64,000 nucleotides of DNA from the IMG/VR virus record IMGVR_UViG_3300021255_002539, positions 224,001 to 288,000 of that record. One strand, written 5' to 3'. Positions 5,047 to 47,724 of the stretch are shown piece by piece (the first letter of the stretch is position 1; the number at the start of each line of letters is the position of its first letter). Made by a program: the position numbers and the translations under genes. The DNA is from a virus. Lineage: Duplodnaviria > Caudoviricetes. The notes under the pieces are model-generated. The model searched no databases and was not told the origin of the DNA. It saw nothing but the letters and a program-made list of their open reading frames with translations.

Positions 5047-5053
5047 GTAAATA
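5047..5053 (+). promoter_or_regulatory. putative late promoter GTAAATA
   Basis: Intergenic, sense-oriented copy of the recurrent motif, 11 nt before ATG 5065. Confidence 0.6.
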
Positions 5054-5064
5054 TACATATATAC

Positions 5065-5349
5065 ATGGCAAGCACTACACCAAAGAACATATCAGGCAAG
5101 TTGAAGAACAGCAGAGTGCAGGTGGACAACTTCATCTACACGCAGTTGCTCTCCAACAGAAGGTCGTTCTATGTCTACTGTGGCAAGTCCAAGAAGCGCA
5201 TATACCAAGGCTCATGCTCCAAGGAGATCAAGAACATCTACTTCGATGGCACTTGCGTGGTGTGCATCTGCGACAACAAGACCTACATATTCGGACCCCA
5301 GGACATGAGGTATCCCCTCAAGAACTGGCGGCAAATCAGGGAGTTCTGA
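5065..5349 (+). CDS. small basic hypothetical protein
   Basis: 94-aa ORF with phage-like codon usage, ends in TGA. Confidence 0.7.
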   Translation: MASTTPKNISGKLKNSRVQVDNFIYTQLLSNRRSFYVYCGKSKKRIYQGSCSKEIKNIYFDGTCVVCICDNKTYIFGPQDMRYPLKNWRQIREF

Positions 5350-5352
5350 AAC

Positions 5353-6234
5353 ATGAAGGCGACGATAACCAAGATTGACAACAATGGCACTGAGGTTGTG
5401 TGGGAGGGCGAAGTCTCATCCCCAGAGGAGGCGTTTGACATCTACACTGACGCCATAATGGACAGGAGGGCAGACGACCACTACCTTTGGGATGACTACA
5501 ACAGAATACTGGAAGGGCACAACAAGTTGTACAGAGACAAGCGCATAGGGTTGTTGAAGAAGAATGGGAAGATATACGAGACCTTCCTCAGAGGCCAGTA
5601 CAGCCTGGAACTTGAGATATTCGACGACGATGATGAGGATGACGAGGAGAATTGGTTTGTCGCCGAGAGTTTGGATCCCAAGTACGACGACCAGCCAGAG
5701 AACCAATATGGCGAGAAGTGGTAGATTCTGAGGGGGACATACCTCAACTCCGTACTTGAGTCCATAATGCAGGACATTCAGATTGACCCAACAGAAGATG
5801 GTCCCAAGATGGAAAGACTCTCCCTTGGGGGACTCCACATTTGCGAGGATGGGCATCTCATAGCCGAGATATATGGTGGGGCGAATGGTGGTGGATTCCG
5901 TGGGGTGGAAAGCAACTGGCCCTACTACCTGTCCCTGGTCCGCAAGTTCTTGGGCAAGCTTCTGAACTACGACAATGGGAATATGTTCAAGGATGTCTGG
6001 CTGGTGGATTGGGACAACGACTGCTGCGACGATGTATGGACATTGACATTGGGAATAGAATTGTCGGACCAGGAAAAGCTGCAACTCGCTGAAGATGGAA
6101 AGATGTTCTCAGTAGTTGATCCCACCAAGTTGGATGTTGGTCTGGATGCGGCCGTGGCCGTTGTGTCAAATGAACCAATTGATGTCGCCAATGCGGCAGC
6201 AGCAGTAGCAGCAGAATCCAGGAAGCGAAAATAA
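5353..6234 (+). CDS. acidic hypothetical protein (TAG 5722 read through)
   Basis: ORFs 5353-5724 and 5767-6234 are the same frame, separated only by TAG plus 14 sense codons. Confidence 0.75.
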
Positions 6235-6297
6235 CCAACTTGTTCAGATTTGCGTAACTCAGATTTGAACAACTTGAAAACTCTGTTCAGCTTTTTT

Positions 6298-6314
6298 TCG
6301 TATAATTGTAAATA
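6298..6314 (+). promoter_or_regulatory. tandem TCGTATAAT and GTAAATA promoter elements upstream of Hsp20
   Basis: Sequence tcgtataattgtaaata. Confidence 0.6.
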
Positions 6315-6410
6315 GACAATGGCAAGGGAAAGTCAGGAAGGTTTCCGGCGACTACCGAGCCAAATGGTTGATTGCGAAAACAACAACCAAAAAACAGGAG
6401 GAACAGAAAT

Positions 6411-6905
6411 ATGTTCGAGATAATGAACCCACTGGCCACATGGGACGATATGTGGCAAAACATGCTTGCCTTGACGGAGTATCCGTTCAACAATGGCAAG
6501 AACCTGATGAACACAGGGCTACGTAAACTGATTGGTCGGCCCCACAATTTGGTGAATGTCACCGACAAGGACGGCAACATCATCGAGCAAAGGCTGGAGG
6601 TTGTCACGACGCCATTCAAGAAGGAGGATGTGGATGTCCAGGTTTCTGGCAACACATTGACCGTAAAGTGTGGCTCCGAACAAGAAGAACTCCAGGAAGC
6701 ACCCGAAGATGGGAAGGATAAGCCTGTTGAGAAGTACCTGTACAAGGGCATTTCCGAGCAGTACTACACCTTCTCCCTCAAGTTGTCGGACAAGATTGAC
6801 AAGACCGCAATCAAGGCAAAGAACCAAGATGGCGTCTTGACAATCACCCTTCCATACAAGAAGGAGACCAAGTCTGGCGACATCGCCAAGATAACTGTGG
6901 AGTAA
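6411..6905 (+). CDS. small heat-shock protein (Hsp20/alpha-crystallin family)
   Basis: PFKKEDVDVQVSGNTLTV, YLYKGIS and IKAKNQDGVLTITLP motifs; AGGAGG SD. Confidence 0.92.
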   Translation: MFEIMNPLATWDDMWQNMLALTEYPFNNGKNLMNTGLRKLIGRPHNLVNVTDKDGNIIEQRLEVVTTPFKKEDVDVQVSGNTLTVKCGSEQEELQEAPEDGKDKPVEKYLYKGISEQYYTFSLKLSDKIDKTAIKAKNQDGVLTITLPYKKETKSGDIAKITVE

Positions 6906-6942
6906 TGGAAGAACCACAGAGACAAGCAGTAATCGGGGTGGG

Positions 6943-6971: not shown

Positions 6972-6992
6972 ATAGAAAGGGAAGTTTTAACT

Positions 6993-9863: not shown

Positions 9864-9874
9864 TGCTGTTTCAT

Positions 9875-9881
9875 GTAAATA
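9875..9881 (+). promoter_or_regulatory. putative late promoter GTAAATA
   Basis: Intergenic, upstream of GAGGT SD and ATG 9913. Confidence 0.6.
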
Positions 9882-11275: not shown

Positions 11276-11282
11276 GTAAATA
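11276..11282 (+). promoter_or_regulatory. putative late promoter GTAAATA
   Basis: Intergenic, upstream of 11359. Confidence 0.6.
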
Positions 11283-12480: not shown

Positions 12481-12487
12481 GTAAATA
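12481..12487 (+). promoter_or_regulatory. putative late promoter GTAAATA
   Basis: Downstream of the terminator, upstream of the giant recoded gene. Confidence 0.6.
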
Positions 12488-12519: not shown

Positions 12520-15500
12520 ATGAACACATCATTGACAAGACCACAGTCCCTTTAGGAACTATACAAGACATACTTCGCCTTTGCGAACAAGTTTCAGTTC
12601 ACTGCCCTTCTGAGGAACTACATTCAGAACGAGGAATGGAAGGACAAGAGCCAGGAGAGGGTATGGTCGTTGATTTCGAGGATATCGGACGATCTTGGGG
12701 CAGTCTTCACGGACGACATCGTGAACTATACGCGCAATGTCGTGGATGTGAACACCTGCAAGGTTCCTCAGTTCCTGGAGCAGTGCAAGATGTTGTCCTA
12801 CAATCTGGAGCACATCAAGAACTCGTATGGGTTCTTCCCCAAGCAGATACAGTGCCTGGTGGACTTGTTCTCTGTGAACCCAGAGTATCTGATTGGCAAC
12901 TCCAGCAACCACATCCTCTCTGACCAGGTAATCAAGGAGATATTGGTGTACATCAAGGATAATGCCACATCTACTGTGACATTCACGAACCAGGATGTTG
13001 TGGACAGGCTGATTGACGATCCGCATGGACTGGTCGATGGCGACAACTACTACAACTTCGTCGTGTCGCTTTTCTACACTACATTGGTGGAGGCGTTGTC
13101 GGCGAAGTACTCAGACGAGGATGGTCAGCCAATCGTGTTCAACTTGTTGTGGTGGGAGATGTAGAACAGGGACATCATACTGGACAACTTGAAGGGCTAC
13201 AAGTCCTGGGTGGACAGGTACATCTCCAACGAGATTGAGCATCCCCTGAACGACCAAGGTCTACAGAACACGATATGGAGCACGGTCCAGGCGGTCAAGA
13301 ATCAGAAGAAGATGTCCCCAAGGTTCAACCCATTCAAGTTGGCAGACGAAATCTACTTCAATGGCTTGAACCCCACCAACAAGCTGACTTAGGACGAATT
13401 GGATCTCATTGGGACTGTGCTTGACTACCACGCGAGGACGAAGTACAACTATCAGGAGTAGTAGTTCTCGGACGACCAAAGCACGCAATTCGCCTACTAC
13501 CGAGAGCTTGAGTTTTGTGGATATGTGAAGATGGTGATGTTCGTCCTGAACAACTTGAACAGCTTTGACTTGTCCAACTTGTCCTACGATGTCCCCACCA
13601 ACAAGTTCATACAATATGGCACGGACGATTGCCTGAAGGTGGCTTAGATATTCAACGATGGTGAGGGGCATTTGGTGCAGATGCCAAATGGGGATGTCGC
13701 CTTGAACCACAAGGATGTCGTGTTGAGGGTGGCGAAGTTCCTGGCAAACTATGTCTTCCACATACAGCATCTGAGGGAGAACGCGAAGACGATTGCCTGC
13801 AAGCATGCGATGAGGGGTACTGCTGGGTTGCTCGCGCATGTTGTGAACGACTATCTGGTGAAGGAATTGCCATCTGTGAGGGACAACTTGCTTCAGGGCT
13901 CTGATGTGGACATTCGGTTCCAATGGGAGATTCAGCCAGACAAGTTCCTCAACTATGGCAATGTGAAGGTATTGGAGTACATGGACGACAACGAGTACTT
14001 CAACATAGACCCAATAGAGGATGTGAGGTTCACCGAGAGGACGAACGCGAGGTATTGGGAGAAGTTGTCGGAGATTGGCTATGACGAGTCTCTTGGCGCA
14101 TTGACGAAGCGCGAGATACACGACCTATACGCCAATGTACTTGGAATTGGGAAGCTTCAGCCAGACAGGGAGAGTTCGTTTGACGATGTTCAGGACTTCC
14201 TGGTGGACTTGTTCAAGATTGGCGCGAACCCAGTGAAGTGGGACTTCGGTGATGGGGACTTCATGAATCCAATAGACTACGATCCATTGAGGGATGCGGT
14301 CTACGATGTCGAGGGCAAGTATGGCTACACAAAGGCCGAGAGGATGAAGGTTCAGACCAACACGGGGCTGAGGAAGAACCAGGAGGCGCAGTTCCTGGAG
14401 TATAGTGGTCAGAATCTGGAGGACGATGCCATACAGGGCATATACGACTACATGAACAACCAGTTGTTCTATTGGAAGAACACCGACTACTCGTCCCATG
14501 TCCTGCACCCGTTCATGTACAACCTCAAGTTGTGGAACCGCCTGGACAACATCATAGTCAACGGCTATAGGGACTACATCAACAACGACCTGGTGAAGCA
14601 CATGTCCTCCAAGGTGAAGTTCGACGAGTTGGTTGGGGAGTTTGGCGAGTGCAGAAGGTTCTGGAAGTACAATGTGGTGGACATGACAGGCTACACCACC
14701 AGATACGAGGCTGCCGTGAAGGACGAACACAAGGACGACGCCAACAAGACGACGAGCCAATTGACTGGGTACGATGGGTTGTTCTACCCAGACGCAGCAT
14801 TGGAGTTCCTTCGGATATACGCAGACGAGAGGTCAACATCGACAGGAGAGAGGTTCCAGATTCCAACTTGGTTCTTCGTCAACCCACAGGATCTTCTGGA
14901 TTCGCAGAAGACCGAATTGTTGGAATACTTCAAGTCCCACGCATTCATCAGAGCGATACACTCAATCTACTGGCAATTGTCTGGTGGGGTGCCCAATTTC
15001 GCGGAGTATGCGGTGAGCCGATTCTACCTTGATTGGTACTCGCACCTCAACTACACGAGGGCTGAGTATCAGAAGATTGCTATGCAGTTGTGGTATTGGC
15101 GGGACAGGGTCAAGGAGCTGATTCAGACCGAGTACCCAATCAAGAAGTACTGTCTGGACATCCAAGGCAACTCCCTGTTGTTGGTATCCACATTCGGTCC
15201 GGACGAGGTGGATTCGAACAGATTTCTGATAGACCTGCAAATCGAGCAGAACAGGGTGCAGACAGAGGCGAATGGCAACTTGAACATCCATGTGCCATTC
15301 TGCGAGGACAAGCTCGTGCAGCCCAGTGAGATGTGGGTGAGGTGGAAGTCAAACCCAATCGCTTTCCCAGCATTCGACATAGAGTGGAACCAGAAGACTG
15401 GCGACCAGCAATTCGACTTGAACTTCAGAAAGGACGACGACAACACCGAGATGGGGCAGTTGACCCACGCCAACAACGACTGCAACGACGACTTCCATGT

Positions 15501-18500
15501 GGTGATTGAGGACTGGCTGGCGAAGTATGGGGACAAGATCAATTGGGAGAGGGGTGGCTCAAACAGGCTGCCGGTGTTCTTCGACATGGAGCAATCTGCG
15601 AATGTGTTGGCGTTGGCGTCCTGGCACACATTCCAGAGGAAGGTGGATGGGGTGGCCGAACTGGACGAACTCGGAAACCCAATGTACGAGACCCTTTGTG
15701 GAAAGAACCCGCTTCACATATTCTCGGTGGAGAGGACAAGCACATCCACATTGGAGTACAATTGGACGAAGTACATCCAGTCAAACGACAAGATCTTCGC
15801 AGAGGATTACCTCAAGGGAATGCTTTTCGACGCATACCACTATTGCCCCGCGAATGGAACGCTTATGGTGCCACTCTACAGATTCACCTGTTCAGATTCA
15901 GATGACTAGGGGGACATCCACGGGCAGAAGGTGGATATCAACATGTGGTTCATTCCTGCGCAAATACTCAAAGACGACAGGTTCGTGGCGCAAAGGCGGA
16001 TATTCATGGATCGACCATCCAACTCTCCCTTGGACTTGAACCAGCTTCTGGATGCTGGGTAGAACGCAAGCAGGTTCCTGTTCGATCACCCAGTGAAGGT
16101 GTGCAGGAACACCAACCTCGTTTTCTCGCCATATGAGGACCAGAATGGGATGAACAAGGTGAAGTGCGCGTTCCTGGGCGTGTATATGGACAAGACGCCA
16201 GATCTGAAGAAGGACAACCACAACATCAAGTCGATATCCTTCAATACTGGCAATGGAGCCACCAGATACGAATACGACTCGCAATCTCCACTTGACCTTG
16301 GGTTGGTGAAGAACGGGTACTACATGCAGAACGACATCGCTGACATATACGAAGGTACTGATCCAGACTGCTGGCCAGATGGCGATTTCAGAAAGCGCAG
16401 GTACATCGACCAGGGGATATCGAGGGAATGCTTCAACTCATACGACTCCAACGACAAGTATGTGTTCGTCTTGGAATTTCAGCAATCTGTGGACAACGCC
16501 ATTCTGTTCAACAACTCCAGTGACCTCCCGATGGCATATGCCTACAACATACTGTCGGATGCTGGCTACATCCCCCACTTCGCGTACCAATCCCTCGTGA
16601 AGTACAAGGGCGATGTCGATGGAACAGCATATACATGGGAGAGCAAGTACTTGTCTGGCAAGGATCACCTTCAGTTCGAGTTGCTGGGTCTGGACGACAA
16701 GCAGATTCCATTGGCCTACGAGAACATGGAGAGGATGATCGTTGAGGACACCACAGACGATTGCCGCACCATAGTGAACCCAGCCAAGTTGATGGAGGAC
16801 ATCTACCGAGTGTGGTGCGAGACCAAGGGAGTGAAGTAGAACCCAGAGGACCAGTACGAGTCCTACTTCGAGAACGAGTACAAGGGATACGACAACCCAG
16901 AACTGGAGTTTGACGACGACAACGAGGCTGTTTGGGACGACACCGAGGACTTTGAGCTGACATTGCCATAGTTGAACGACCCATACGCATACGACAATCC
17001 AGATGTGTTCAGAAGGTTGCTTGACGAGTACTACATCACAGTGGTCCGGACAGACAATGGGGAGTTGGCGAACGAGAGGAAGTACATTCTGCCCCCAACC
17101 AGCATATCCGAACTTCTGTTCAACAACGACGCCTCCACCAACGATGGCTATGTGAGGTGTTCTGGGTTGGTGGAATACGCAGATCCAACGGTTCAGGACA
17201 ACCACTATGTCCCAGAGCAAGTCGTGTTCACGGGCACCCAAAACCCCTTCGCCTACGACCAGGAGGGCAATCGGGTGTACTCCAAGTCAGAACTGCTCCA
17301 ATATGGCAATGGCATTAGGGGCGTGGACGACATCTATGTTGGATTCGACATCAGAACTGAGGATGGCGAGGAACCAATTCGGGACAAGCAAGGCAACATA
17401 GTGTCCGAAGAAGAGGTAGTGGCGGGGCGGATAGTGGTGAATGTGCATACCAGACCGGTTCAACACAAGTTCATCAGACCAATCGTCAAGTTCAAGAAGT
17501 CCCTTAGACCATTGGATGCCAAGAACCCAAGCTTGGTTGACAGGTTGCACAACGAGCAGAACATTATACCTGCTGGCTCAATTAGGGTGATACTCTCGCA
17601 CAGAAACATGGACAACCTGGCGAAGTACCACATCCTCAACACATCGTCCAACCTCTACTTCAATGGCTCCTTGCCAAAGAATGGATTGAACCAGTTCAAG
17701 TACTCAGACTTCAAGTTCTCCAAGACCGTGCATCTTGAGCAAACCGATGATGGGTGGAAGTCCACGGAGAATGACGCCAAGGGCAATCCAGTACTGGAAT
17801 TCACCAACGAACAGATTTCTGGCCAGATTCCACCATATTCGGTTTCCATCAACAAGGGCAAGGTTGCTGAATTGTGGTATCTTGAACAAGATGGCATTCA
17901 AGGCGATGGCGAACATCAAATAGAACCAGGAAGAAGGGGATTTGACCACTTCCAGGAGAATGGACCAACCTATCCAATCCCAGATGTTGGTGGATTCAAG
18001 TGGGCGCATCTGGCGAAGGAAGTGCCACTCAGATACCTCGACTACCTCTATATCAAGCGCGGAAGGCTGTCCTTCAAGATAAGCGAGGAATCCGAGTCCT
18101 TCACAGACTTGATGTCCAGGCTGCCATCCTTCCACATAGACGATGAATTGAGGAACAAGATGGCGGATTTGAACGATGTGCAGATCCTCAAGGACTACTC
18201 CACATTCGTCCACCAAAGCGAGAACCCAGAGGTTGTCCGAGCATGCGGCAGCTTCAATCCACTGTTGGTGAACTCGATTGTGCGTCCTGGCGTGAAGTAG
18301 ATGGAGACCCATAGGTATCTGCTCAAGGAGAATCAGAGTTCAGATGGCATCTTCCAATTGGACGAGAATGGACACCCAATCGAGATAGGCGACGATGGCA
18401 AACCACTTAGGTACGACGAAGATGGCAATGTACTCAATCCACTGCCAATCGAGGTGATTTGCGCCAACGAAGGAGGTGAGCCGAACACCATGATTGAACT

Positions 18501-19728
18501 CAGCACAGGGAATACAGCAATCCCCCTCATGCTCCAGTTCGAGGATGGAGAGCTTGACGACTACCTCAAGATATACGCCAACTATGTCAGGGTTCAGGAC
18601 AAGCACGGGGACTTCCACTACGATCTCTACTTCAACATCCAGAACCTGTTCAACTCCCCATTCGAGTACATATCCACCGTGACGAAGCAACCCAATGTGC
18701 TGGTCATCCCAGACTCCTACCTCTACTTGACTGGCGACAAGTACACCGACCAAGGAGACCACAACGAGGTTGACGCCGACAAGATGAAGGTCATCAAGGA
18801 TGGTGGGGAGCTGTCCATATATGGGCAGGTCAAGACATATTCTGATTGCTTGCTCTCTGACGCCAAGACAATCAAGATGTTCACATACAGGATATACAAC
18901 ATCTCTGACGACAAGCCCAAGTTCCTCATCCAGAAGACCTTTGACATCACCAAGTCCTCCCTCAGGAACAATATTGAGAGGAAGGTGGAGGTGAAGTTCT
19001 CGGATGTGCTGTGGACGATTGACGAGAACCAGTTTGAGTTTGCAGATGCCAACCTCAAGGACGATTTCAGAATACTGAACCAGGATGTTGTCGTTGTCCA
19101 ACCAATCCACATCAACTGCCATTGGGACAAGGACGACGACTCCAGGGTACGGACGCTATCCTTCGACATCATGCACGACACCATAGACTTCGCCAATGTC
19201 CCTGCGCTGGGTCCATATTGGATGCAGGCCAGGACATTGAACTGCGAGGTGATGTAGACAGAGGATGTTGGCGACAAGGTGTTCAAGAAGCCCTACTACG
19301 ACCATTGGTCTGACTCGAACATGAGGTTGGTTGTTGACGAGAACACTGGAATCCCCAGGCTCACATTGACCTTCAACGACGATGCTGACTTCAACTTCGA
19401 GACCATATACCTGAAGTGGGTTCTGCCAAAGGGCTGCAGGATAATGGACAGCATCGACAGAATGGGTGGGTATGTGTTCAGTTCCACGCCTATGAACATA
19501 GTCGCCGACTGTGGAAATGCTGCCGTCGTTCCCCAGATTGAGACTTCCACTGGACACATAGTGGCTCGGGTCAAGAGACCAGACAGAATGTACCTCGGGC
19601 TGGAACATTCCTCCACCCAGAGGATGAATGGGTATGTCATATCGAACTTGGCAGAGGAAATTCACAAGGCATTGGTGAGGGGCGAGAGGAACCCAACACT
19701 TGAAGGAACAGACAGAAATGGAGGTTGA
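12520..19728 (+). CDS. giant (~2,400 aa) putative virion structural protein, possibly baseplate (12 in-frame TAG)
   Basis: Seven track ORFs (12670, 13189, 13672, 16093, 16972, 18301, 19279) share one frame. Gaps contain only TAG (12553, 13162, 13390, 13459, 13462, 13645, 15907, 16060, 16837, 16969, 18298, 19255); ends at TGA. Start could also be ATG 12478. Function is inferred. Confidence 0.8.
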
Positions 19729-20430: not shown

Positions 20431-20437
20431 GTAAATA
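20431..20437 (+). promoter_or_regulatory. putative late promoter GTAAATA (preceded by TATAAT)
   Basis: gttataattgtaaatag, same arrangement as at 6301-6314. Confidence 0.6.
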
Positions 20438-25605: not shown

Positions 25606-25672
25606 ATTAGTATCTCCATTTACTTTGTTGTTCATAGGGTATTTACTATTCCTAGTTCCCTACTTCGCCTAT

Positions 25673-31862: not shown

Positions 31863-31876
31863 GTCGGTTTACCTCG

Positions 31877-32509: not shown

Positions 32510-33141
32510 AGTTGCGTTTCCTTTCTTCCTTGTATTGTATTTACATTCTTGGCGTTTTTCTCGAACACAACCTCGAACCATGGGTTTTCGTACAGGGACT
32601 TCGCCAGATAGCACTTCCGCTTCACCAACCCCAGGAACTTCTTCACCTCAAATGTCTGTATGTCCGCAATTGGGTAGCAATTCGCCACCAACTCGAAGCA
32701 ATAGAGCTTGCCCTGGTCGGACTTGTAGTCGAAGTCATAGGGTACGCCAATCTACTCCATCACGTGCGACAATGCGGTGGTCTGACCTCCATTTGGGTGC
32801 AGAACCATTATGCGGTCCGCCTGGCAAAAGTCCAATATGTGGGTTTCCTGAACATATGGTGCGACGGCATGGACAACCAGGTTGTTTCCAATGTAGAGCC
32901 CAGCATGGGAATACCCCCTGTTGTCTGGGATGAACTTGCCATCCAGGTACTTGTCGTAGCCCCGCAGGAGAATGTCCCCAGGTCTGACGAGGTTCATTAT
33001 CCTCTCCAAGTCGTATCCAGTCACATAGTAGGGTTCAGGATCATATGCCAATATGGGGAAGAAGCTGAAGGACAGAACCTTGATCTTCCCAAACTATGTC
33101 AGGAACTATGACCAAATCTTGTATAGAAACTGCTTTACCAT
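32506..33141 (-). CDS. permuted papain-like NlpC/P60 (YiiX/YebB-like) enzyme (3 in-frame TAG)
   Basis: PGDILL and YSHAGLY (His) precede TAG 32752; GVPYDF...LYCFELV (Cys) follows it. Confidence 0.88.
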
Positions 33142-33149
33142 GATGATAC

Positions 33150-33156
33150 TATTTAC
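33150..33156 (-). promoter_or_regulatory. putative late promoter GTAAATA
   Basis: 8 nt upstream of ATG 33141, no SD. Confidence 0.65.
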
Positions 33157-35071: not shown

Positions 35072-36616
35072 TCAACTGATTGCTGAGCCATTTGCATCCA
35101 ACCAAACCAAGGCTGCGTCAATTGCATTTCTGACAGCCTTTTCTGTTGGAAGTGCCGTGTCTGCACCAGTAGCACCAATTGCCGTCACAACTGTCTTGTC
35201 GGCCACGGATGTTGTTCCCAGTGTCGCGTTGAGACTTGCCTTTGTTATTGTGGTCGTGAGAGAGGTCAGCTTTCCATCAGATTGGACAACCTTTACATTT
35301 ACGCCAGAAGATCCATTGCTCACTGTGGAATCAAGTGCACCAATCTTGCCAGTAACATAGTCTGCCACGGCATTTGCAGTCACAACTTTCACTGCTGTGG
35401 TGGTAATGTCAGCAGATGTTGAAACAGGATTGACATATATGTCCATAATTGGACTAGAATTGGAGTAGAGTTCCACTATACCACTGATGCCATATGCACC
35501 AGAAGCATATCCAGTTCCTGTTTTCGCCTTGCTGCTATCCAACTCGCTGACGCTCGCATCCACATATGCCTTTGTCGCATATGTGTTTTGGTCGCCAATG
35601 AGTTCCCAGTCATAAGCTTTATCGTCAAATATCCACTCCTGTCCATTGACATATGAAGAACCCGAAGAAGCACTACCAATTATGATGATGTCACCACTTT
35701 GGGGATTTTCCAAATCATATGGAGATGAGTACACGCCCTGGAAGTGCATCACATTGCCGAACGCAGTTGCGTCTACGCTTACCACCTTGACAGAACCAGA
35801 CTGGGTCGTCACGCTCACTTTGATGCCATTGCTCGTACTTGTATGCGTTTCTGATGCAATTGCGGCAATTTGTTTGTCAGCCAATTGCTCCACCGTGCTT
35901 CCACCAACAGTGAGGTTCGTGGCTGACACATTCGTGACGCTGAAGTCTGCGGTGCTCGTGACTGTGAGGTTGGTGAATGTACCAGTCTGGGCACTCACAG
36001 TGGTTGGCGTGAGGTTCGCCGCAGTAAGGGACACCGCCGTGACCTGACCATTCTTGGTCGTTACGGATGCTGTTATGCCATTCGCGGTGCTTGACTTTGT
36101 TGATTCAGCTGCCGTATATGCTGGCGCAGTGACATCAACATTCGTAACAACACCACTGGTCGTTGTAACATCAACAGTGACTCCATTGCTCGTGCCATGC
36201 TCTGTGGACGAGTCAATGGATGGAATGGATGGGAATGCCTGGGCATATGCTTTGACATTGCCATTTGCGTCCTGCTCGATATGCGTGATGTAGGAACTTC
36301 CGTAGCCAGAAGCAAGGCCGCTAGTCATCAACGAAATCATCGCCTTTACCTGGACATCGTTCTCAATCTGCACCCACGCGCTGCCATTCCAGGCCTTTGT
36401 CCATCCAAATCCAACAGCAAGATCTCCAGAGATTTGCCCAGATATACTGGCTAGATCAGTGGAGGTAGATACTTGAAATACCTTGTTCGCACCAAACCTG
36501 GATGCTCCCTTGTAGAGTTCGCCACCATCGACGAAGTACACGCCACCAGCATCCTTGGTTCCTATCGCAGAATAGGAAGCGGCGGTAGTAGAATAAAACT
36601 TAACTTGTGTTGCCAT
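35072..36616 (-). CDS. fibre/tail-associated structural protein
   Basis: Ser/Thr/Val-rich beta repeats; paralogous to 36758-38470 (QVKFYS, GGELYKG, MHFxGV, GQEWI..W..IGDQ); GTAAATA at 36666-36672. Confidence 0.7.
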   Translation of the reverse strand: MATQVKFYSTTAASYSAIGTKDAGGVYFVDGGELYKGASRFGANKVFQVSTSTDLASISGQISGDLAVGFGWTKAWNGSAWVQIENDVQVKAMISLMTSGLASGYGSSYITHIEQDANGNVKAYAQAFPSIPSIDSSTEHGTSNGVTVDVTTTSGVVTNVDVTAPAYTAAESTKSSTANGITASVTTKNGQVTAVSLTAANLTPTTVSAQTGTFTNLTVTSTADFSVTNVSATNLTVGGSTVEQLADKQIAAIASETHTSTSNGIKVSVTTQSGSVKVVSVDATAFGNVMHFQGVYSSPYDLENPQSGDIIIIGSASSGSSYVNGQEWIFDDKAYDWELIGDQNTYATKAYVDASVSELDSSKAKTGTGYASGAYGISGIVELYSNSSPIMDIYVNPVSTSADITTTAVKVVTANAVADYVTGKIGALDSTVSNGSSGVNVKVVQSDGKLTSLTTTITKASLNATLGTTSVADKTVVTAIGATGADTALPTEKAVRNAIDAALVWLDANGSAIS

Positions 36617-36695
36617 GTCGTTCTTTACCTCATATTTGCGTGATTTGCTTCAATATCACTGTGTCTATTTACAATTCTGAGGGCAAAAAGAACTA

Positions 36696-36757: not shown

Positions 36758-38470
36758 TTAGGGTTGTTGTTCTGGTTCTGGGTCGGTAATCCACTCGAAT
36801 GTCACTGCACATGAAGTGAGTACGCCATTGGTTTGAGTGACCGTGACACCCACATTGCCCGCTGTGCTCGACACTGTTGCGCTAAGACCACTAATCAAGT
36901 CAGTCACGAAGGTGTGGACTGCGGATTCCGTAGGAAGATCCGTGCCAGTAGACGACAACTAATCAACATAGCCCTTGGATGCAGCAGCTCCAAGGTTGAG
37001 GGCCGTGCCGAGTTCAGTTGGATTAACCGTGAGTTCCACAGACGGAACCATTGTGGTAGAGTTAATAGTAACTTCCACACTAACGCCATTGTCTTCAGAA
37101 GTTCCAGTTCCACCCTCATAGGCGTCAATCGCGCCAGCAACAGCATGCATTGCAGCATCAAGAGTCGTGGCCGCGGAGGTGACGGTCTCTTCACCATGTG
37201 AATAGGACAACTGGGTTGAGACATAGGAAGCAACAGCACTGCAAGTTGGGAGTGTTGCTGCATTCGCAGTCACAGCATCAGCAGCGTCCTTTGCCGCAGC
37301 CGTGCCAACGCCCGTGAGCGTCACTGAAGGAGCGGCTGTCGCTGCAGCAGTCACAACTTGAACCGTGACACCACTGAGAGTGCTTGTGCTTGTTCCACCA
37401 GTTACTGCGGACTGATCGCCAATCTTCTCCCACTTGAAGTCTCCAGATGCCTTATCGTTGTATATCCATTCCTGTCCATCGACATATTCAGAACCCTGAG
37501 CAGCACCACCAATTATGATGATGTCGCCGCCTTGGGGAGTTGGGCAATCAGCTGGAGACGCGAATACACCCCTGAAGTGCATTGCGTTGTCGAATGCATT
37601 CAAGGCATCACGGACAGCCTTTTCAGTTGCGATCTTGCCATGGGATGCGGTGTCTTTGTCTCCAAGAACTTCTGTAACAGTCTTGCCAGCGAAGGTTGCG
37701 AGGTTGCCAGTTACAGCAACGCCAACTTCGCTCACGCCACCACCAAGGGTGCTTACCGTGACCGCAACACCAGAGTTGCTTCCGGTTGCGCTTGAAGCAG
37801 CAACATTGTTCACAGAAACATTGTTAATCTTTAGGGATCCAGCATCAACCTCAGTTGCTGTGAATGTGGCCGTGCTAGTGACATTCAAGTCCGTGAAGTT
37901 ACCGGTTGTTGCCGTTACCGTGCTGTTGGAGACATCAACGATGCCCTCGATTCCCGTGACGCGATCCGAGACACCTGTGATTTTCGCGGTGTTAAAAACA
38001 ACGCTTGCAACCAAAGCATCCCAGCCATTGACCTTTGCCGCATCGTCACCCAACTTCACCTCACCAGCATTGTCGCCAGATTCAAGTGCTGGGAATGCAA
38101 CAGCGTTTGCCGTCACATTGCCATTCGAGTCCTGCGAAATGCCAGTGATGTAGCTGCCATTGCCACCAGCAACAAGACCACTGGTCATGCTGCTTACGAT
38201 AGCGCGAATGTCAGCAACATCGCCACCCAGCTTTTGCCATGCGGATCCATCGAAGACCTTTGCGCCCTCGAATCCGACATTGATGTCACCACGGGCGGCG
38301 CTTGTAAGTGCGGATAGCTCAGCTGCTGTGGACGCCTTAGTGACGCGACCCAATCCAAAGCGCTGTGAACCCTTGTAGAGTTCGCCACCCTGAATGAAAT
38401 AGACGCCATTCTCGTCCAGCTTATCACCTGTTGGTAGGCTTGCCTTGGAGTAGAATTTAACTTGTGCCAT
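36758..38470 (-). CDS. fibre/tail-associated structural protein (TAG 36959 read through)
   Basis: ORFs 36959-38470 and 36758-36958 abut in frame. The post-TAG part (LPTESAV...GVTVTQTNG) matches the paralogue's repeats. Confidence 0.75.
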
Positions 38471-38579
38471 ATTGTTTTTACCTCTTTGTTTTTGTTTTTA
38501 AGTTTTTGATCACTTCACCCGAAGCAATCCAATTTCAACTTAAATCGTCCTTTGATCTGCTTATGTATACCTCCTTTCC

Positions 38580-39032
38580 TTAGTCAGCGTCCCATTCTGG
38601 GGAGTCCTCGTCTCCAATCTCGAACCACTTCGCCAAGCCATTTGGCACTGGTTGCCCATTCTCGTCCACATCCACTCGGTACAGGAACTCCTTCTTCGTG
38701 TGAGCCAACGCCACGATGTCGTTCAGCTTTGGCGTGACCTCACCACCCCCTATTATGAGGACAGTGCCCTTTTGCGACATTTGCTCGTTCGGGTCAGTCT
38801 CTGTCTGGCCTATGTACCTCACAATCGAAGGATCAGACCAACCTTTCGTATAACATGTGCGCCGCCAATGGAAATCCACATAGATGTTCTACTCGTCCTC
38901 CACGAACATTATCTGTCCAGTGGAATATGGAGGAACGAAATCGTGCTCTGATTCCTTTGTCAGTGGAACGCCAGGATCGTTGAAACTGCCATCGTCCTTC
39001 CTCACTATCTTGAATGTGACTTTCGCACCCAT
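38580..39032 (-). CDS. short member of the same fibre-associated family (TAG 38889)
   Basis: GQIMFVEDE*NIY and KEFLY...WFEIGDE resemble motifs of the two downstream genes. Confidence 0.7.
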
Positions 39033-39035
39033 TCG

Positions 39036-39455
39036 TCAACCCTCCTCCATCACTATGTCGTCGTTGTCGTTATTTCCTCTGGTTTCGTCTTCCCATTCCA
39101 TGCCTCCGCTTCCGCCACCACCTTCCTTGACGGCGTTGCGAATCTCGTATATCCACGGAATCGCCATGTTGATGTTGGGTTGGTTGAAGAAGCACTCCAA
39201 GTCCTTGAGGACTGGGTCTTCCTCACCCCTTTTCTTTTTCTTCTGTTGCTTTGACGAATCTGGTTTCACGACGTTTTTGTAGATTTCATAGAGCCACGGA
39301 AGCACCATGTTGATGTTTGGTTGGTTCAAGAAGCATTGGAGATCCTTGATCTTTGGATCGAATCCACCGGAACCCCTGTTCTGAACCTTCTTTCCCTTCT
39401 TGCTTGATGTTGTTCCCATGACACGCACACACATGTGGTTTGTTGTTCTTCTCAA
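39036..39455 (-). CDS. hypothetical protein with an internal duplication (start uncertain: 39455/39434/39419)
   Basis: DPKIKDLQCFLNQPNINMVLPWLYEI and DPVLKDLECFFNQPNINMAIPWIYEI. Confidence 0.7.
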   Translation of the reverse strand: MRRTTNHMCVRVMGTTSSKKGKKVQNRGSGGFDPKIKDLQCFLNQPNINMVLPWLYEIYKNVVKPDSSKQQKKKKRGEEDPVLKDLECFFNQPNINMAIPWIYEIRNAVKEGGGGSGGMEWEDETRGNNDNDDIVMEEG

Positions 39456-39459
39456 GATA

Positions 39460-39491
39460 TATTTACATTTTTTATGTTGAAAAGGTAAATA
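39460..39491. promoter_or_regulatory. divergent pair of GTAAATA late promoters
   Basis: TATTTAC 39460-39466 and GTAAATA 39485-39491 between divergent genes. Confidence 0.7.
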
Positions 39492-39760: not shown

Positions 39761-42139
39761 TTAGTTTGATGAGATTACACCATCCTTTAGGTGTAGTCTA
39801 TAGCCAGATTCGATTCCCCATTTGGTGTCCATTGGAACCTGGGACATGTAGATGTTTGGCAGATACCAGTCGTGGTATACCCCAGCAAATGTGTTGTCGT
39901 TGAAGGCATTTGGATTGGATGTGGTTATTCTGTTTTCCTGCACATTCGTGTTGTAGAGCATATAGTCGCCAAAACTCCCATCTACGACTGTATCCAGGTT
40001 GTAGAGGTGTTCCAAACCAGTGCCCTAGAAGCAACCATTCTCAAACGAAACCGTCTATGGGGTGTTCGTCAAGCACACATTCGTCAAATTGCCACAATCG
40101 GCAAATGCATTTGTCTCCATCGTGATATTTGGCACTGACGACTTGTCGTTGTTGAAATACACCGCATATAGGTTGGAGCATGAAACAAATGCCATTTCCC
40201 CAATGTATTCCATGCTTGGACCAAATATGAGTTCTGGAATATTGGGGTTGTTTTCGAAAGCATATGATCCTATATGCTGACAATTACCCAGATAGTTCAC
40301 ATCAACATGTTGGCAACCATTGAACGCATAGTCTCCAATGTTCTGCGCACACATCAACTGGTCAGGCTTGTTGAATTCGATGTTTGTTCCAGCAAAGGCA
40401 TATGCACCAATTCCCGAACATGAATATAGCCCATCTACACTTGTCAAGGTTGATATGCCAGAGAAGCAATTGTCTGGAATCGAGAATTGGTATCCATCAG
40501 GCCCAGTTGAAGTCGCTATCGTGACATGTTCTAACATACTGCATCCCTGGAACATCGAAACCATAATGGACAGCCGGCTGGCCAATGTTGGTCCGACGTG
40601 AATGTAGGACACCGGGACATTATACATGTCCATTTGGTAGTCCACACCCACATTATCGACATAGAATAAGTTCAAGAATGGCAAGCTGTTGCATCCAACT
40701 ATGGTGTTCGTGGAAAACGACCTCTGAAACTCCAGGTTTACGATGTTGCTCAATCCACTGCAATCAGAGAATTGACCACTCTCCAGATACAACCTTCTGC
40801 TTCCAACCAGTGCCTCGACATCAGATACAGTGTAGACGGAACTATACGATGAAGGGCCAGGAAGTCCAATCCACCTTAGATTGGGATTGTCTGCAAATGC
40901 GTATGCCCCCATGTAGACGCAATTTCTGTCAACCCACAGACCCCTATCCGAATCTGGTCCCCCTTGTTCAGAGAAATTCCCACTCTCACCGAGGTGAGCA
41001 TACCGAAACGCCTCAGTGCCTATCTATGCAATGTTGGCCAGTTCCCCAGACTTTCCATACAAACCCCATCCAATCTTGGTCTCTCTGAATGCTGCACTTC
41101 CTATGATAGAGCAATCACGCAAACCAGTTGCCGACAGAGACACCTTTGGATCTGTCCCACCTGGGGAATAGTCGCCAGAAGTGTAGGAATACCCATCTAC
41201 ACTCGTCAAATTGTAACATCCATCGAACAACCCAGCGCAAATGCTGAAAGTCGTCGAGAAACTGTACATTATGTCAACCTGGTTGATGGTGGATTGCAGT
41301 CCATACAGAAAAAGGCATGTCTATGTTCCACTTTCATCGTATCCAGGTCCCCACAACTCCTCGTTCAATGTGACTTTGCTCAAACAACTTGATGGACCCA
41401 AGTCCCAGACTGTCGATCTAAAGTCGGCATACAGAAGTGTAGTGCAATTGTCCAACCTCAACTCCTGAATGGAACTGCAATAATCAACAGCATCTGGAGG
41501 AAACTGGGTCTGATACTCCAAGTTGAATATCCTCTACAAACTTTCACAATTTGTGAATTGTGAATGGTAATTGCCATATAATAATTGGTCAAATGTAACA
41601 CCATTTGGGCAAAGTGTTACCTCACTTATTCCTTGGCAATTATCGAACGCACTGATGCCCAGGAATCTGCAATCCCCCAAATCAACACTGGTCAAATTCC
41701 TGCAACTATGAAATGCTGCTGCCCCTATGGAAACCACATGGTTCAAGTTCACGACATTTGCCAGACTGGAGCAATTTCCGAAACATTCATCTGGTATGGT
41801 TATTCCACTGGCCAAGGAAATGTGTTGCAATGCTCCGCAAGAGTAAAAGGCCCGCTCGCCAATCATTGAGCAATTCCCAATGTCAACCGTTACATTATAA
41901 TCCCCCATTCCAATGTGTGTATAGGCAAATGCAGATGATCCAATTGCCACACAAGTGTCCAAGTTATCCACACTACTTAAATATGTCCACCCTGTGAATG
42001 CATAGTCGGGCAGGGTCACGCTTTGGGCGACAACAACCCTGTTTACATCCATGCAACTTACACTGGCATCAGACAATGCTTGGGAGATGTCGCCAAGTGA
42101 AGGCGTTGTTCCAAAACTAGTCAGGTTAAGTGTTACCAT
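39761..42139 (-). CDS. large BspA-type LRR protein (~790 aa; 5 in-frame TAG)
   Basis: Five track ORFs in one frame joined at TAG 41534, 41321, 41024, 40055, 40025; IGxxAFxxC units; GTAAATA at 42173-42179. Confidence 0.85.
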
Positions 42140-42206
42140 TCTACTGTACCTCTTGTTTTCAATTTCTAGAAGTATTTACAATTATTGGTTGAAGTGGCTT
42201 GAATGT

Positions 42207-42506
42207 TCATTCATCTTCTTGCAGGAGGTATAGTAGAAGTGTAATCAGATCGGAGTCAAGGATGTCATCCTCGTAGTCAGACGGTTCTCCAAGTTCTTGC
42301 ATCACCCTGGATTGTTCGTCAAGCTGGTCCAGGTCAACATCCGAGTCGTCTACCTATATGACCTCGTCGGGTGTGTACATCTGCGCCTCCAGTTGTTCGA
42401 TGCTGGGTTCGTAGATGGGGTAGATTTGACGATCTCCGAGGTAGACCGTCACTATGCGTCTTTCCCTAGCATATACTTGCGTGGTTTGTTCGTTCTCTTC
42501 AGCCAT
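42207..42506 (-). CDS. acidic hypothetical protein (99 aa; 1 in-frame TAG; not in ORF track)
   Basis: MAEENEQTTQVYARERRIVTVYLGDRQIYP...; start overlaps the upstream stop. Confidence 0.7.
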
Positions 42507-45345
42507 TGTCGTTACCCCCTTCTTGTGGTTCGGATTCGCTTGACTCAGATTCGTCTGCCTTGTATATCAAGTGCTCTATTGCATCGTCGGATATTGTGGT
42601 GTCGGATTCGTATCCAGGGAATTCGAATATCTCGCTGTTCAGGAATTCTGACGTACCATTTGCCTTAACCCCAGGCGTGTCTTCAAGCAGGAACGACCAT
42701 GGGTGGTATACTCCATTGACCTACATCAGTGAATGCGAGTTTTCGTACATCTAGGCGCGACATTTGTGGAAGTCCAAGAAGAAGTCTATGATGGCGTTGA
42801 AGGTGGATTTCAAATCATTTGGTACATATATATCATGTAAATTGTAATCATTAAGTATTGATCTACTATTTCTTGGTTCAATAAACGCCACGAAGTACCT
42901 GTCTATCTCTGGATTTAGCTTTATGAATCCCAATTTATTCTTCTTGATGAATCGTTGAATAGCAATAAAGCTCTTTATGTATTCTATCAGCAAGGACCTT
43001 TCATTGTTCGTCCTATCTATTATGAATTTATTGCGGGTAATGTTCTTCTGCCAGCTTCTAATATCCTTGAACCACGGATTCACCATGTAGTGGAAGAGGA
43101 CATAGCAGTACACAAATGGGTTTTTTTTGACAGCTTCGTTTCTATCGGAACCCGCTGCAATTATCTAGTTGAATTCATTTGCGTCGCTTGTGTATTCATA
43201 TGCATTCCAATTGACAAAATCATTAACACCAAATGATAACAACGAAGTTCCAATGAAATAGATGTGTTTATTGTAGAACTCCTTCAATACCTACAGGTTT
43301 GCATTTCGTATATTTTCGATGTCGGCGTTTATATTGTTGTTCCCATAGGTGTAATCGGTGTCAACTATACCAAAATCTCCATACTAAACAACATCTCCGA
43401 CGCAGTTCCCGTTCTTGTTCCTGTATGTTTGACTATTGGCGTTGTCTGCCCATTGCAACATGTAGTTGGCGTTGAAGTCTTCAGATACAGTGACCAGGGA
43501 GTAGTCATTGTTGTGTACTTCTTTCTCGAACAACCCACCCGCGTAGTTCGAGTTGCATATTATGATGTAGTATTCGTTGTCTCGTTTTATCCCAAGCAGT
43601 TGCTATATATGGTCGTATGTCAGGTAATTGTTTTTATTGATGCTATAATTAACTCCCATGTATATTAGGTTAGATGATGATAAAACGACTTTTGTTTTAC
43701 CTTCTTGATCTTTCAATGATGGAGCATTTATGAACACGACCTTGAGGGGGCATTTGCACTCCTTTATCTGCTGTATCTTCTAGTCTATCGTCCATTCGGT
43801 CCATTCACTTTCGTTTTTGTACAAATACCCTTGTTCGCCGTATTTGGCGTCCAAAGCCGCCTTTATCTTCTTGTGCCAGGGGTTGTCCTCGTTCTTGTAT
43901 ATGTTTGAGGTGTCCAAGTCTGTTGTGCAGTTCAGCTTGAAGTACGCGCACTTTAGGGTGTCTTCAACATTGACAAATATTGGGAACAAGTTGAGACCAT
44001 CATCAGTAATGGGAACATCTCCTTGACCATTCTTTGTCGACACTATTATGCGCTTGTATTCTTCCTCGCCTTGTTCTGTGTCTTTGACGAATGCGAACAT
44101 GTTTGTGAAAACCAAGTCGGGTCTTCCTGGTATTACATATTTGATTTTATTCCTGAGCTTCTTTACATTATTTCGTGTCGTGATGTAGTATTGTGGATAT
44201 TGTGGGAAAGTATTTTTGCGCCAGTTGTTGTAGGATGGAAAGTTGAAGAACAACTGCCTTGGATATTCAATTGTTGGATTTGGTACATTGGCGATGCTGT
44301 CACAAAATGGCTTTTGCGATACTTTCATTTCCAAATTTCCTTGTGAATTTGGTTCATATTCCAACCTGAATGTGCAATATGGAATTGAGCATCTGCCATC
44401 TGATATTGCAACCAGTTCATCATATATGATGTCTATGGTTTTGCCTTTTATAGAATAAGGAGTTGGTGGAGAGAAATTATCGTTTTTTGGGTCCCATGAT
44501 ATTTGACAGCAATCGCAAAGGCAGTCATTTTCTCTATATAGGTTTTCTTGACGATGGAAGGAATAAGCAAATGGAGCATCATCGTACTACCATGCGTTAT
44601 TCCCAAATGGTATTTTCATGGGTTCTAGTATTCTTCGATTCGCAATAGTAGTATTATTGAAGTTGGCCATTTCAATTGGACCATTCAAGTCAACACTTCC
44701 CATGTCAATCACGGTATTGGTTACATCTTTTACTACAAGACCACCTACGATGGATTTTCCCGTAAACACGGAAGCAAGATAAAGGCTCATCTCGCTTTCT
44801 GGGGTGGTTTCATCATTATTAGAGCAATAGTAGAAGTTTGCGTTTGAATTAAAGTAATTTGGTTCGCCTCTTATTGTAATTGTAACATTATATTTAGTGA
44901 AACTTCTTGATATCTTTTCTTGTTCTTCCCATCGCTTTTTTGTAGTTGCCATCGTGGAGCCACACTCGATTACATAAGGTGATATTATCTTGCAATAGTT
45001 CTTTTTATATGTTCTTTTTATGTTTTGGTAATTGTTTGGAAATAATAGGTGATTAAATAAACCAAGGTTAATAGTGCTGTTGTCGGTATATGCGGTGGTA
45101 GTAGCTACACCATGTCTATCGTACTTAGTGTAAATTGTTGTTGTCTCCACATTTGCTTTGTCTTCATATATCATGCTTCCATTGTTTGGAATCAACAATA
45201 TATTGTCACCTGAGTAGTTAGGTGTGTCGTCTGTGTAGGTTTCTGTATAATAGTCACTTGCCCTGCATACATTTGCAAACAATCCATCAGGATAGATTAT
45301 CGTATAAGTTCCAGCCTGCCCATAAGATATAGTTTCACTTCCCAT
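42499..45345 (-). CDS. AT-rich hypothetical protein (~950 aa; 8 in-frame TAG)
   Basis: Translated by hand across the gaps between track ORFs: only TAG at 44587, 43780, 43603, 43384, 43291, 43165, 42751, 42721 until TGA 42499. Confidence 0.8.
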
Positions 45346-45359
45346 CTTTCAATCACCTC

Positions 45360-46475
45360 TCATTGGTTTTCCTGGATTATGAAGTAGAATGTGTGTTCGT
45401 CCTTGTTCTCCAGTTCGTTGTATTGCGCCTATGTCAGGAACTGCATGTTGTAGCTGGCCAGATTGCCGAGGTTCTGCACCTTGCGCTCCACCGCCCTCAC
45501 CCGGCTGTCGAGAGCCGAGTCTGCGTCCTCCCTTTGTTCCTGCTCATCCTCAATCATCTCCATCAGTTCAGAGTTTGCCTACGACGAGTGGCCACTTTCT
45601 CCACCACCTCCACCACTTGATGTCGAACCACCCGAACTCTCCAATGTGGAGACTCGGTTCTTCAAGCTGGACACATCCGTCTCAAGTGTCGACACCCTGG
45701 CTCCAATGGAGTTGACTTGACCTTGGATGTCGGTTTGGTTGCTTTGGAGGGTTTCGCAACTGGCGTACAGTGTGTTGAGTCCATCTACCTGGTTGTTCAG
45801 ACCAGCTATGCTTCCCCTGATGGCGTTCAAGTTGCTGTTGAATGTAGATGTCGTGACATATACGCCAGGATCCAGTTCTGTTCCTCCACCTTCTGTTCCA
45901 TTGCGTTCCAGTTCTGCCACTCTGCTTTCGAGGGATGTGACTGACCTGTTCATCGTTCTGACATCCACGCCAATGTTGTTAACGGTCCTTTGGATGGAGT
46001 TTACGCTGGAGGTCAAGGTGGATATGCGCCCATTCAATGTGGATACATCAGACTCCAATGTGGTTATCTATGCGTCAATTTCTGTGACATCCCCCTCCAT
46101 CAGCCCTGTAATGTCCTTCATGTCGGTGACATTGGCAGTGACCTTCTATAGCCTCTCGTACAAGGCGTCTGTCTCGTGGTTGTCCTCGTATTCCTGCATC
46201 TCCCTGGTTCTCAATGATCCATCCTTCACGAACACTCTGTACTTCGTGTCTGGGGAGTTCTCGTCGGTTAGGACGATGTGGTCCCAAGGCCCGTTGTACT
46301 TGCCCGCTACCTTCAGAACATATTCCTTGATCTTGGCGTATAGTTGCTTTGCCCTGATGTCGATGTAGGAATTGATGTAGGCTATGCAGCCCTGAAAGAT
46401 GTGTCCATGTCCGTGTGGGCATGCGCCTGGGTCGGTCTGCCCCGTAGTCAATGTGTTTTCGTCTGATTGCGCCAT
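45360..46475 (-). CDS. coiled-coil fibre/whisker-like structural protein (4 in-frame TAG)
   Basis: Heptad repeats (VSTLETDVSSLKNRVSTLES); C-terminal LT*AQYNELENKDEHTFYFI matches the TQAQYxxL..KD.NT.Y motif; GTAAATA at 46511-46517. Confidence 0.75.
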
Positions 46476-46530
46476 TTCGATTTCACCTCGTCAATTGGGT
46501 ATGTCTATGCTATTTACCAATATAGAGGCG

Positions 46531-46560
46531 AAAAAGAAGCCATCCCAGGGCAGGATGGCA
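46531..46560 (-). terminator. intrinsic terminator
   Basis: GCCATCC/GGATGGC stem with a T-rich tail on the minus strand. Confidence 0.7.
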
Positions 46561-46591
46561 TCTATTGAGGTGGAAGAGAATTATTGTGGTA

Positions 46592-47248
46592 TTATGTCAG
46601 GTCTCCAACAAATGTGACATTTACTGTGCTTCCGAACTTCGTTTGATATGCTGTCAAGTATTCAGATTTGACATGGCAACGAGTAGGGTCATTTTCATTG
46701 AAGTCGTCCTTGCCACTATCATCCCAGGTCAAGTTAGTGGGATTTGGATAGCAATAGACATCATTGACATCTGTGCACCCGTAGAACGCATCATACCCGA
46801 TGCTCGTCACGCCATCACCTATGGTGATGCTCGTAAGTCCGCTGCAACCCGAGAACGCAGAATCCCCGATGCTCGTCACGCTGTCCGGTATCGTGATGTT
46901 CGTAATACCATAGCAGGCGTTGAACGCAGCCTACCCAATGTTCGTCACGTTGTTACCAATCGTCACGCTCATAAGATCCCTACATAAGTGGAACGCATAC
47001 TGCCCGATACTCGTTACTGCGCTTCCAATTTCGACTTCTGCTGGATATTTTATCCACGATGGTTCTTGTTCTGTCCCACTTCCTTCTGGCATCAACCCAG
47101 CTGCTATTAATGCTGGGCAATCCATAGAATCTTCTATCAAGTAATCTCCTTCTGTTCCATCGACAAACTTGATGTGCGTCTCAGCCTTTACAATTGGTCC
47201 AGTAGTTATCGTTATGCTGTTCGCTACCAATTTGCTTATCGTAATCAT
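46592..47248 (-). CDS. BspA-type LRR protein (TAG 46931)
   Basis: VTNIG*AAF aligns with neighbouring VTSIGQYAF / VTSIGDSAF repeats. Confidence 0.85.
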
Positions 47249-47255
47249 GTTGTTT

Positions 47256-47528
47256 TCACCTCGTTTGTTTTGTTGTATTATAGTTTTCCAATGCCCGGGC
47301 AATTTGGTCTGGGCAAGAAGTATCCCGATTTCCGCATTTGATTCCCTTCAGTACCTCAATTGCCTCGACCACCCGCATTCCCCGCATCAGACGAATCAAT
47401 ACCGTCAAGTAGCCATGACATCCACCCAATATGGCGATATTGACCAGAGTGTCGTCGCTCTCGTCAACATATACCTTCATCATGGATGGACATATGCCAC
47501 CCTACGGGATGTACTCAAATGCTGTCAC
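47256..47528 (-). CDS. TSCPD-domain protein (TIGR03905-like; TAG 47502)
   Basis: YIP*GGIC...GGCHG...GIKCGNRDTSCPDQIA; the first Cys motif is reached only through the TAG. Confidence 0.85.
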
Positions 47529-47724
47529 ATATCTATTTACAAAAAACTTGCGACAACATCACCGAGGTGGCTGCCAAGCAGCAGGTGAAGTTCAAGGCCG
47601 ACAAAGCCAACATCGCCCAATCGATGGCATCTCTTGCAGCATCCATCAAGTACAACTTCAATATCTTCCAGGCCCACAAGTTGACGAGAACCATCAGGAA
47701 CAGTGTAATGGCAGTAGACATCAC
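47515..47724 (-). CDS. small two-TM membrane protein
   Basis: GAGGGAGG SD, two hydrophobic segments; TAG 47533 then TGA 47515. Confidence 0.5.

Follow-up and report, generated by a model that had tools for sequence, protein, structure and literature searches.

Conserved amber codons in a gp55-like late sigma factor gene may couple TAG recoding to late transcription in T4-like jumbo phages

The stretch of DNA studied here (hereafter the window) covers 64,000 nucleotides, positions 224001-288000 of IMG/VR record IMGVR_UViG_3300021255_002539, a complete genome of 414,060 bp with direct terminal repeats and 48% GC that belongs to a T4-like jumbo phage with genetic code 15, in which TAG is read as Gln. 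Coordinates preceded by "genome" refer to the full record. TAG codons of this phage follow the late promoter motif GTAAATA, and from codon use and conservation we consider it fairly probable that two layers underlie this, an amber gate in the gene for the late sigma factor gp55 and tolerated TAGs in the cargo genes expressed late. The initial annotation of the window had proposed that TAG acts as a translational gate on selected late genes themselves.

The genome encodes T4-type capsid, portal, sheath, tube, wedge and terminase genes. It was compared with three related IMG/VR jumbo phages of 434 kb, 418 kb and a 202-kb fragment (G001-G003, the main genome being G000), to which mean ortholog identity is 59-65%; the clade has a GC content of 45-48%. 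Reading TAG through raises coding density from 0.831 to 0.889 in the main genome and from 0.82-0.85 to 0.89 in the relatives. The residues that face TAG in conserved ortholog contexts are Q (43.7%), TAG itself (14.2%) and then K and E (9% each), and the substitution profile of TAG across orthologs matches that of CAA/CAG.

GTAAATA was seen 19 times in the window with 3.1 expected (six-fold enrichment) and occurs 118 times genome-wide, nearly always directly 5' of genes, with about 100 intergenic sites and the consensus AAT(G/T)GTAAATA. It heads the capsid, sheath, tube, wedge, terminase and portal units. The second promoter family is sigma70-like, with TATAAT and a -35 element that is TTGACA (class E1), TTTACA (E2) or missing (M, -10-only). 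Each gene was assigned to its nearest upstream promoter, and a late box combined with a sigma70-type promoter was classed as dual. Gene starts often lie 10-18 nt 3' of TATAAT or the late box (e.g. window 61367 and 5065, and many genome sites), a short spacing that suggests leaderless or near-leaderless mRNAs. Two arrangements recur in the genome: divergent gene pairs with back-to-back late boxes 19 nt apart (e.g. window 39460-39491), and a late box overlapping the -35 zone of a TATAAT promoter on the opposite strand.

The internal TAG share of Gln codons increases from 0.4% in E1 units, 0.9% in E2 and 2.1% in M to 5.3% in dual and 9.5% in late-only units. Comparison of late and sigma70 units genome-wide, 9.5% versus 1.1%, gives an odds ratio (OR) of 9.2 (p=1.6e-31), so TAG is not equally frequent in early and late genes; outside the window the difference is still significant (p=6.7e-22), and it was not reached in any of 20000 trials of label shuffling over 194 transcription units. 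The bias is repeated in the three relatives (OR 3.3, 3.6 and 82). AT content does not suffice as sole cause and was rejected: GC of the two promoter classes is 0.489 and 0.494, off-frame TAG is similar in both, and in a Poisson model that includes GC, GC at third codon positions (GC3) and length, the late term remains necessary (likelihood ratio 80.6). TAG shifts between the classes by 2.94 log2, every other codon by at most 0.83. TAG is strongly favoured after A, where it takes 22-26% of late-gene Gln codons versus 6-9% otherwise in the four genomes; in -10-only genes it makes up 2-4% of Gln codons, and 11-15% after A.

Within the window, our gene calls contain 16 confident genes with TAG. 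The initial annotation's observation that such genes are concentrated in GTAAATA units was borne out, as 13 of 22 late-box genes and 3 of the 40 others (46592-47248, 49368-49790 and 60966-61367) have TAG (Fisher p=1.9e-5), and so was its remark that one has its promoter beyond the window, where a late box is found at genome 222547. It also correctly singled out 60966-61367 as an exception, and polB, the ligase N-half, the sigma70-like gene, the methylase, the dUTPase and two glycosyltransferase genes as TAG-free. In our calls the exception has TAG at codon 4 and a non-late promoter, and the TAG-free genes are all under TATAAT-type promoters. Early genes can indeed be read with the standard code, and TAG even serves as a stop in them: several finish in a TAG that is closely followed by a backup stop, a gp46-like gene doing so in three genomes, which is indirect evidence that the host reads UAG as stop.

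T4 gp55 is a truncated sigma factor that recognises the -10-only late box TATAAATA. A gp55-like gene is situated outside the window at genome 79305-79961 (+) and matches phrog_234 (E 3e-17) and T4 gp55, PDB 7d7c (E 7e-10); such a homolog, with a TAAATA-type box before virion genes, points to late transcription of the T4 type. As in T4, the predicted sigma factor is truncated and the late box, here GTAAATA, is -10-only, but the present gp55 has an N-terminal extension of approximately 30 residues that carries the putative amber lock, and homologs of gp33 and gp45 were not detected (no Pfam match in the genome, where divergence could hide them). The gene is under an M-class TATAAT promoter, a class in which TAG is rare, and has TAG at codons 24 and 26. 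We collected 15 distinct orthologs from IMG/VR, JGI, ENA and Logan, with 37-50% GC and pairwise differences of about 25-65% at four-fold sites. Codons 24-26 include one or more TAGs in all 15, with six patterns among them, and in the three cases where codons 24 and 26 both lack it, TAG is at codon 25. TAG makes up 21 of 30 Gln codons at codons 24-26 and 16 of 123 elsewhere in the gene (p=1.7e-9). A conservative estimate that allows for the preceding-A context (11-26%) and counts six independent patterns gives P of about 0.005.

The gp55 frame appears to be read through past TAG, because no internal start codon after it is conserved in the orthologs and the residues just after it are conserved with synonymous variation; internal restart was rejected for want of a conserved start codon. 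All five full-length close homologs checked at the DNA level need TAG to be Q, and 33 of 33 shorter close database homologs start after residue 26; database gene calls truncate this sigma factor across the clade. An outgroup gp55 with 49% identity, from a contig that ends a gene with TAG, has neither Gln nor TAG at that site. Opposite the gp55 TATAAT, 28-35 nt downstream, a late box occurs in 14 of 15 orthologs (genome 79237-79243, - strand), near which the main genome has no sense gene; it is a candidate for negative feedback of gp55 on its own promoter.

The same feature appears in Lak phages. Lak-A1 has TAG at codons 20, 33 and 46 of its gp55-like gene, three of five Gln codons, whereas none of 63 Gln codons is TAG in its four neighbours (dnaK, dnaJ and two downstream genes; p=2e-4), and Lak-B1 gp55 has the same three TAGs. 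These lie inside the conserved domain, without an N-terminal extension. We lean slightly towards the view that this clade and Lak acquired amber locks on their late sigma factors independently of each other, so that the code switch would be wired into the transcription cascade and the late programme conditional on recoding.

The initial annotation supposed that selected late products need a phage-supplied suppressor, and a tRNA with CUA anticodon was indeed located by manual scan at genome 297902-297980 (- strand), 9.9 kb past the window end. ARAGORN and Rfam RF00005 reported no CUA tRNA in the genome, and relaxed ARAGORN settings gave noise. The minimum free energy fold of the tRNA located by the scan is a cloverleaf with U1-A72 and G73; CCA is encoded, and the T loop is atypical. 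The tRNA is preceded by a TATAATTG promoter and followed by a terminator, which, at motif level, puts the suppressor in the non-late class; it may also be transcribed by read-through from the upstream late unit. Comparison with the counterpart in the 202-kb relative shows four compensatory pairs, one of them in the D-loop/T-loop pairing, which is suggestive support from two sequences. A CUA tRNA is found at the same locus in all four genomes; the two other relatives have different, canonical ones under the same promoter type (sites in relatives: L085:14644-14724; G001 410487-410576; G002 268611-268687). Three different CUA tRNA bodies with one locus and promoter indicate that the body was replaced while the position was kept. 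Genes for Pth2, YqeY and DUF488 follow the tRNA. A second CTCTAGA hairpin, at genome 367488, was rejected as suppressor since it has no tRNA fold. The genome further has an array of 27 tRNA genes and a transfer-messenger RNA (tmRNA) at genome 361964-370952, besides more tRNA-like units below threshold, some with atypical T loops.

From the codon patterns, motifs, tRNA structure and conservation set out above, a scheme may be drawn for timing, charging by the host, read-through and its purpose. The phage would enter a host that reads UAG as stop, and host sigma70 RNA polymerase would transcribe early and middle genes, including the suppressor tRNA and gp55, both from -10-only TATAATTG promoters. 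The gp55 amber at codons 24-26, ahead of the conserved domain, would yield a fragment of 23-25 residues until enough suppressor, charged with Gln by host enzymes, possibly helped by YqeY, competes with host release factor 1 (RF1). Full-length gp55 would then fire the GTAAATA promoters. Late mRNA would thus exist only in a suppressing cell, for which reason TAG would track the late promoter and build up in late genes as a weak codon for Gln, to the smallest extent in abundant proteins; genes expressed before the switch would purge TAG or use it as stop.

Several points weigh against this two-layer reading. Since the promoters of the tRNA and of gp55 are of one class, the gate could impose only a delay or threshold and not a separate temporal class. 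Codon 24 is preceded by A, which raises TAG use to 11-26%, and the gp55 orthologs are not independent. The Lak gp55 homologs are 96-98% identical and add one further lineage only. The gene set comes from our own gene caller and the promoter classes are motif-based. Moreover, no phage release factor was found (PF00472 without match in the main genome, PF03462 in the four genomes, with positive controls that worked), nor a match to PF00749 for glutaminyl- or glutamyl-tRNA synthetase, and genes with 12-20 TAGs would have to be read through with very high efficiency against RF1 in spite of the lack of a phage RF2.

An alternative is that no TAG is adaptive, the gp55 TAGs being due to inheritance and preceding-A context in a gp55 made late enough to tolerate them. 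The poorly resolved gp55 ortholog tree and the TAGs carried by -10-only genes are compatible with it, yet 70% of Gln codons at gp55 codons 24-26 are TAG versus 13% elsewhere, the TAGs turn over in position without ever all being lost, and an unrelated lineage, Lak, shows them amid TAG-free neighbours; we therefore judge this unlikely.

Also unlikely, and a shade less credible, is gating gene by gene, i.e. selection of TAGs in late and lysis genes against premature translation (Borges-type). The number of late families with an N-terminal TAG in at least three genomes is six, with 1.7 expected (P=0.004), TAG-TAG matches between orthologs reach about three times expectation, and TAG is enriched in the first 40 codons in three of four genomes; codon 26 of the portal gene (genome 407865-409808), whose promoter is dual (late box and TATAATTG), is TAG in each of the three complete genomes. 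Against this, late genes with at least one TAG number 61 where random placement over 106 genes predicts 73, with the same direction in all four genomes, TAG counts are overdispersed among late genes, and the proportion of TAG decreases with increasing GC3 (rho -0.35 to -0.54). Where Gln sites align, the orthologous codon opposite a TAG is CAA/CAG in about 89% of cases. The major capsid gene lacks TAG in every compared genome, as do the wedge and many other late genes here. A candidate holin, without family match, and a lipoprotein candidate have TAGs that are not conserved in position and are absent in some orthologs, and a gate on the holin is not supported.

The proposal of individually gated late genes was thus mostly not supported, and from the overdispersion, the GC3 trend, the facing codons and the deficit of TAG-bearing genes most cargo TAGs appear to behave as a tolerated weak codon. 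A minority of late TAGs look kept, namely the N-terminal ones of the six families, portal and 12520-19728 among them; those of portal, 12520-19728 and a terminase part may be secondary locks. Regarding the large TAG-free late genes named in the initial annotation, 11359-12387 and 35072-36616 are late, with an absence of TAG within the chance rate, but 20478-24140 has a dual promoter and the nearest promoter of 1822-4455 is TATAAT-type.

That leaky read-through of gp55 sets its dose, or that the conserved peptide of 23-25 residues is a second product, with no part in timing the late switch, is distinctly improbable. Residues 1-24 hardly vary and have no counterpart in T4 gp55, and the opposing late box in gp55 leaders hints at tight dosage; however, the Lak TAGs are in the conserved domain and no extension exists there, and TAG tolerance specific to gp55-dependent units would be left without explanation. 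That composition alone produces the pattern, or that TAG means Gln to the host too, can largely be dismissed as highly improbable: TAG is highest in AT-rich late genes, but the composition controls above speak against the former and the early genes that end at TAG against the latter.

Enrichment of TAG in late genes is itself already published, for Lak, crAss and the phages of Borges et al. Lak megaphages (Devoto et al. 2019, PMC6784885) are gut jumbo phages with TAG as Gln, mostly in structural regions, and a CUA suppressor tRNA; passages of that report draw no link from TAG to promoter class or late sigma. Both Lak and the present clade use code 15 and have gp55 and a CUA suppressor, and TAG in gp55 was found in both in our analysis, but Lak has 26% GC, and the RF2 of a Lak-type kit was not detected here, where the sigma70 promoters are canonical and the suppressor is not. 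Borges et al. (bioRxiv 10.1101/2021.08.26.457843) described recoded stops in structural and late genes, assumed a host synthetase and proposed a role in the timing of late expression and lysis; the word promoter is absent from their text. Their model places control on lysis and structural genes with a low-GC origin, whereas here a conserved lock would act on a transcription factor. A Jade-type code-change module (suppressor tRNA, synthetase and release factor beside the lysis cassette) was not seen here. In crAss-like phages (Yutin et al. 2021, PMC7886860) TAG or TGA is reassigned mostly in late genome parts and divergent undetected suppressors were predicted; that recoding is regional, whereas here TAG follows dispersed single promoters and the missed suppressor was identified. 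The theta-ribozyme tRNA(Sup) model (PMC10879173), where a threshold of suppressor concentration flips code 11 to 15, resembles the threshold proposed here; the trigger is described there as poorly understood, and sigma factors do not come up. Searches of open-access literature gave nothing relevant on an amber gate at a late sigma factor or late promoter, and no paper that connects TAG with promoter class; the new element would be the conserved, apparently convergent lock on that factor.

Such a lock would narrow the open question of regulation versus drift in phage stop-codon recoding to one to three codons in one regulator, and would account for TAG tracking the late promoter without selection on each gene. 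If this is true, host RF1 would further have to be silenced by some unknown means, given that single genes hold as many as 20 TAGs and that a phage RF2 was not found. That standard tools missed the suppressor bears on the approximately 60% of recoded genomes for which Borges et al. reported none.

A Gram-negative host is hinted at by an LpxR lipid A deacylase family gene (genome 136696-137532, 1 TAG) that is widespread among related assemblies. Searches with Hsp20, LpxR and GMP-reductase gave no close bacterial match, a fetched LpxR homolog lay in a phage-like contig, and atlas matches of YqeY were mixed. A tmRNA-tag pattern match to Bacteriovoracaceae is not taken as host evidence.

The features of the window are collected in Table 1.

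Table 1. Promoters and genes of the window (LRR, leucine-rich repeat).
Feature	Window position	Strand	Remarks
Late box GTAAATA	5047..5053	+	heads 5065-5349 and 5353-6234 (1 TAG)
Dual promoter, TATAATT overlapping late box	6308..6314	+	precedes Hsp20 gene 6411-6905
polB	6993-9863	+	own sigma70-type promoter, 0 TAG
Late box	9875..9881	+	heads 9913-11229 (0 TAG/7 Gln)
Late box	11276..11282	+	heads 11359-12387 (0 TAG/6 Gln)
Late box	12481..12487	+	heads 2402-codon gene 12520..19728
Late gene	12520..19728	+	12 in-frame TAG; TAG at codon 9 and/or 12 in 4/4 genomes
Dual promoter	20431..20437	+	heads 20478-24140 (0 TAG/46 Gln; orthologs 1-2) and 24159-24644 (2 TAG)
Late units	30870..33156	-	late boxes at 33156 and 32544
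C92 peptidase gene	32506-33141	-	late unit, 3 TAG
Metallophosphoesterase gene	31877-32509	-	3 TAG; TAG at codon 166/167 common to 4/4 genomes
LRR gene	30870-31862	-	late unit, 2 TAG
Late box 36672 and late gene 35072-36616	35072..36672	-	0 TAG/17 Gln
Late unit, box 39466	36758..39466	-	39036-39419; 38580-39032 (1 TAG); 36758-38470 (1 TAG)
Late units, boxes 46517 and 42179	39761..46517	-	45360-46475 (4 TAG); 42499-45345 (8 TAG, 39% GC); 42207-42506 (1 TAG)
BspA-LRR gene	ends at 39761	-	4-5 TAG, late unit
LRR gene	46592-47248	-	1 TAG; late box 47540 upstream, weak own TATAAT nearer
Early-class gene	49368..49790	-	only TAG 6 codons from the TGA; probable stop with both codes
Exception gene	60966..61367	-	apparently leaderless, -10-only TATAATTG promoter, TAG at codon 4

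The gene at window 1822-4455 is tail/head-fibre-like, has no TAG among 31 Gln codons and is absent at the syntenic spot in the relatives; it may have been acquired recently from a phage with the standard code. A small TAG-free gene missed by our own caller lies at window ~25147-25630 (- strand), with both a full sigma70 promoter and a late box (25646) upstream; its product has a hydrophobic N-terminus, a Gly/His-rich part and VVTTP repeats. A conserved cassette of about 45 residues stands at the N-terminus of approximately nine proteins, most of them late, that are unrelated in the rest of their sequence (window 11359-12387 and 24159-24644; genome 518, 96800, 100326, 176046, 177539, 197429 and 219985); the cassette is possibly a head-targeting signal.

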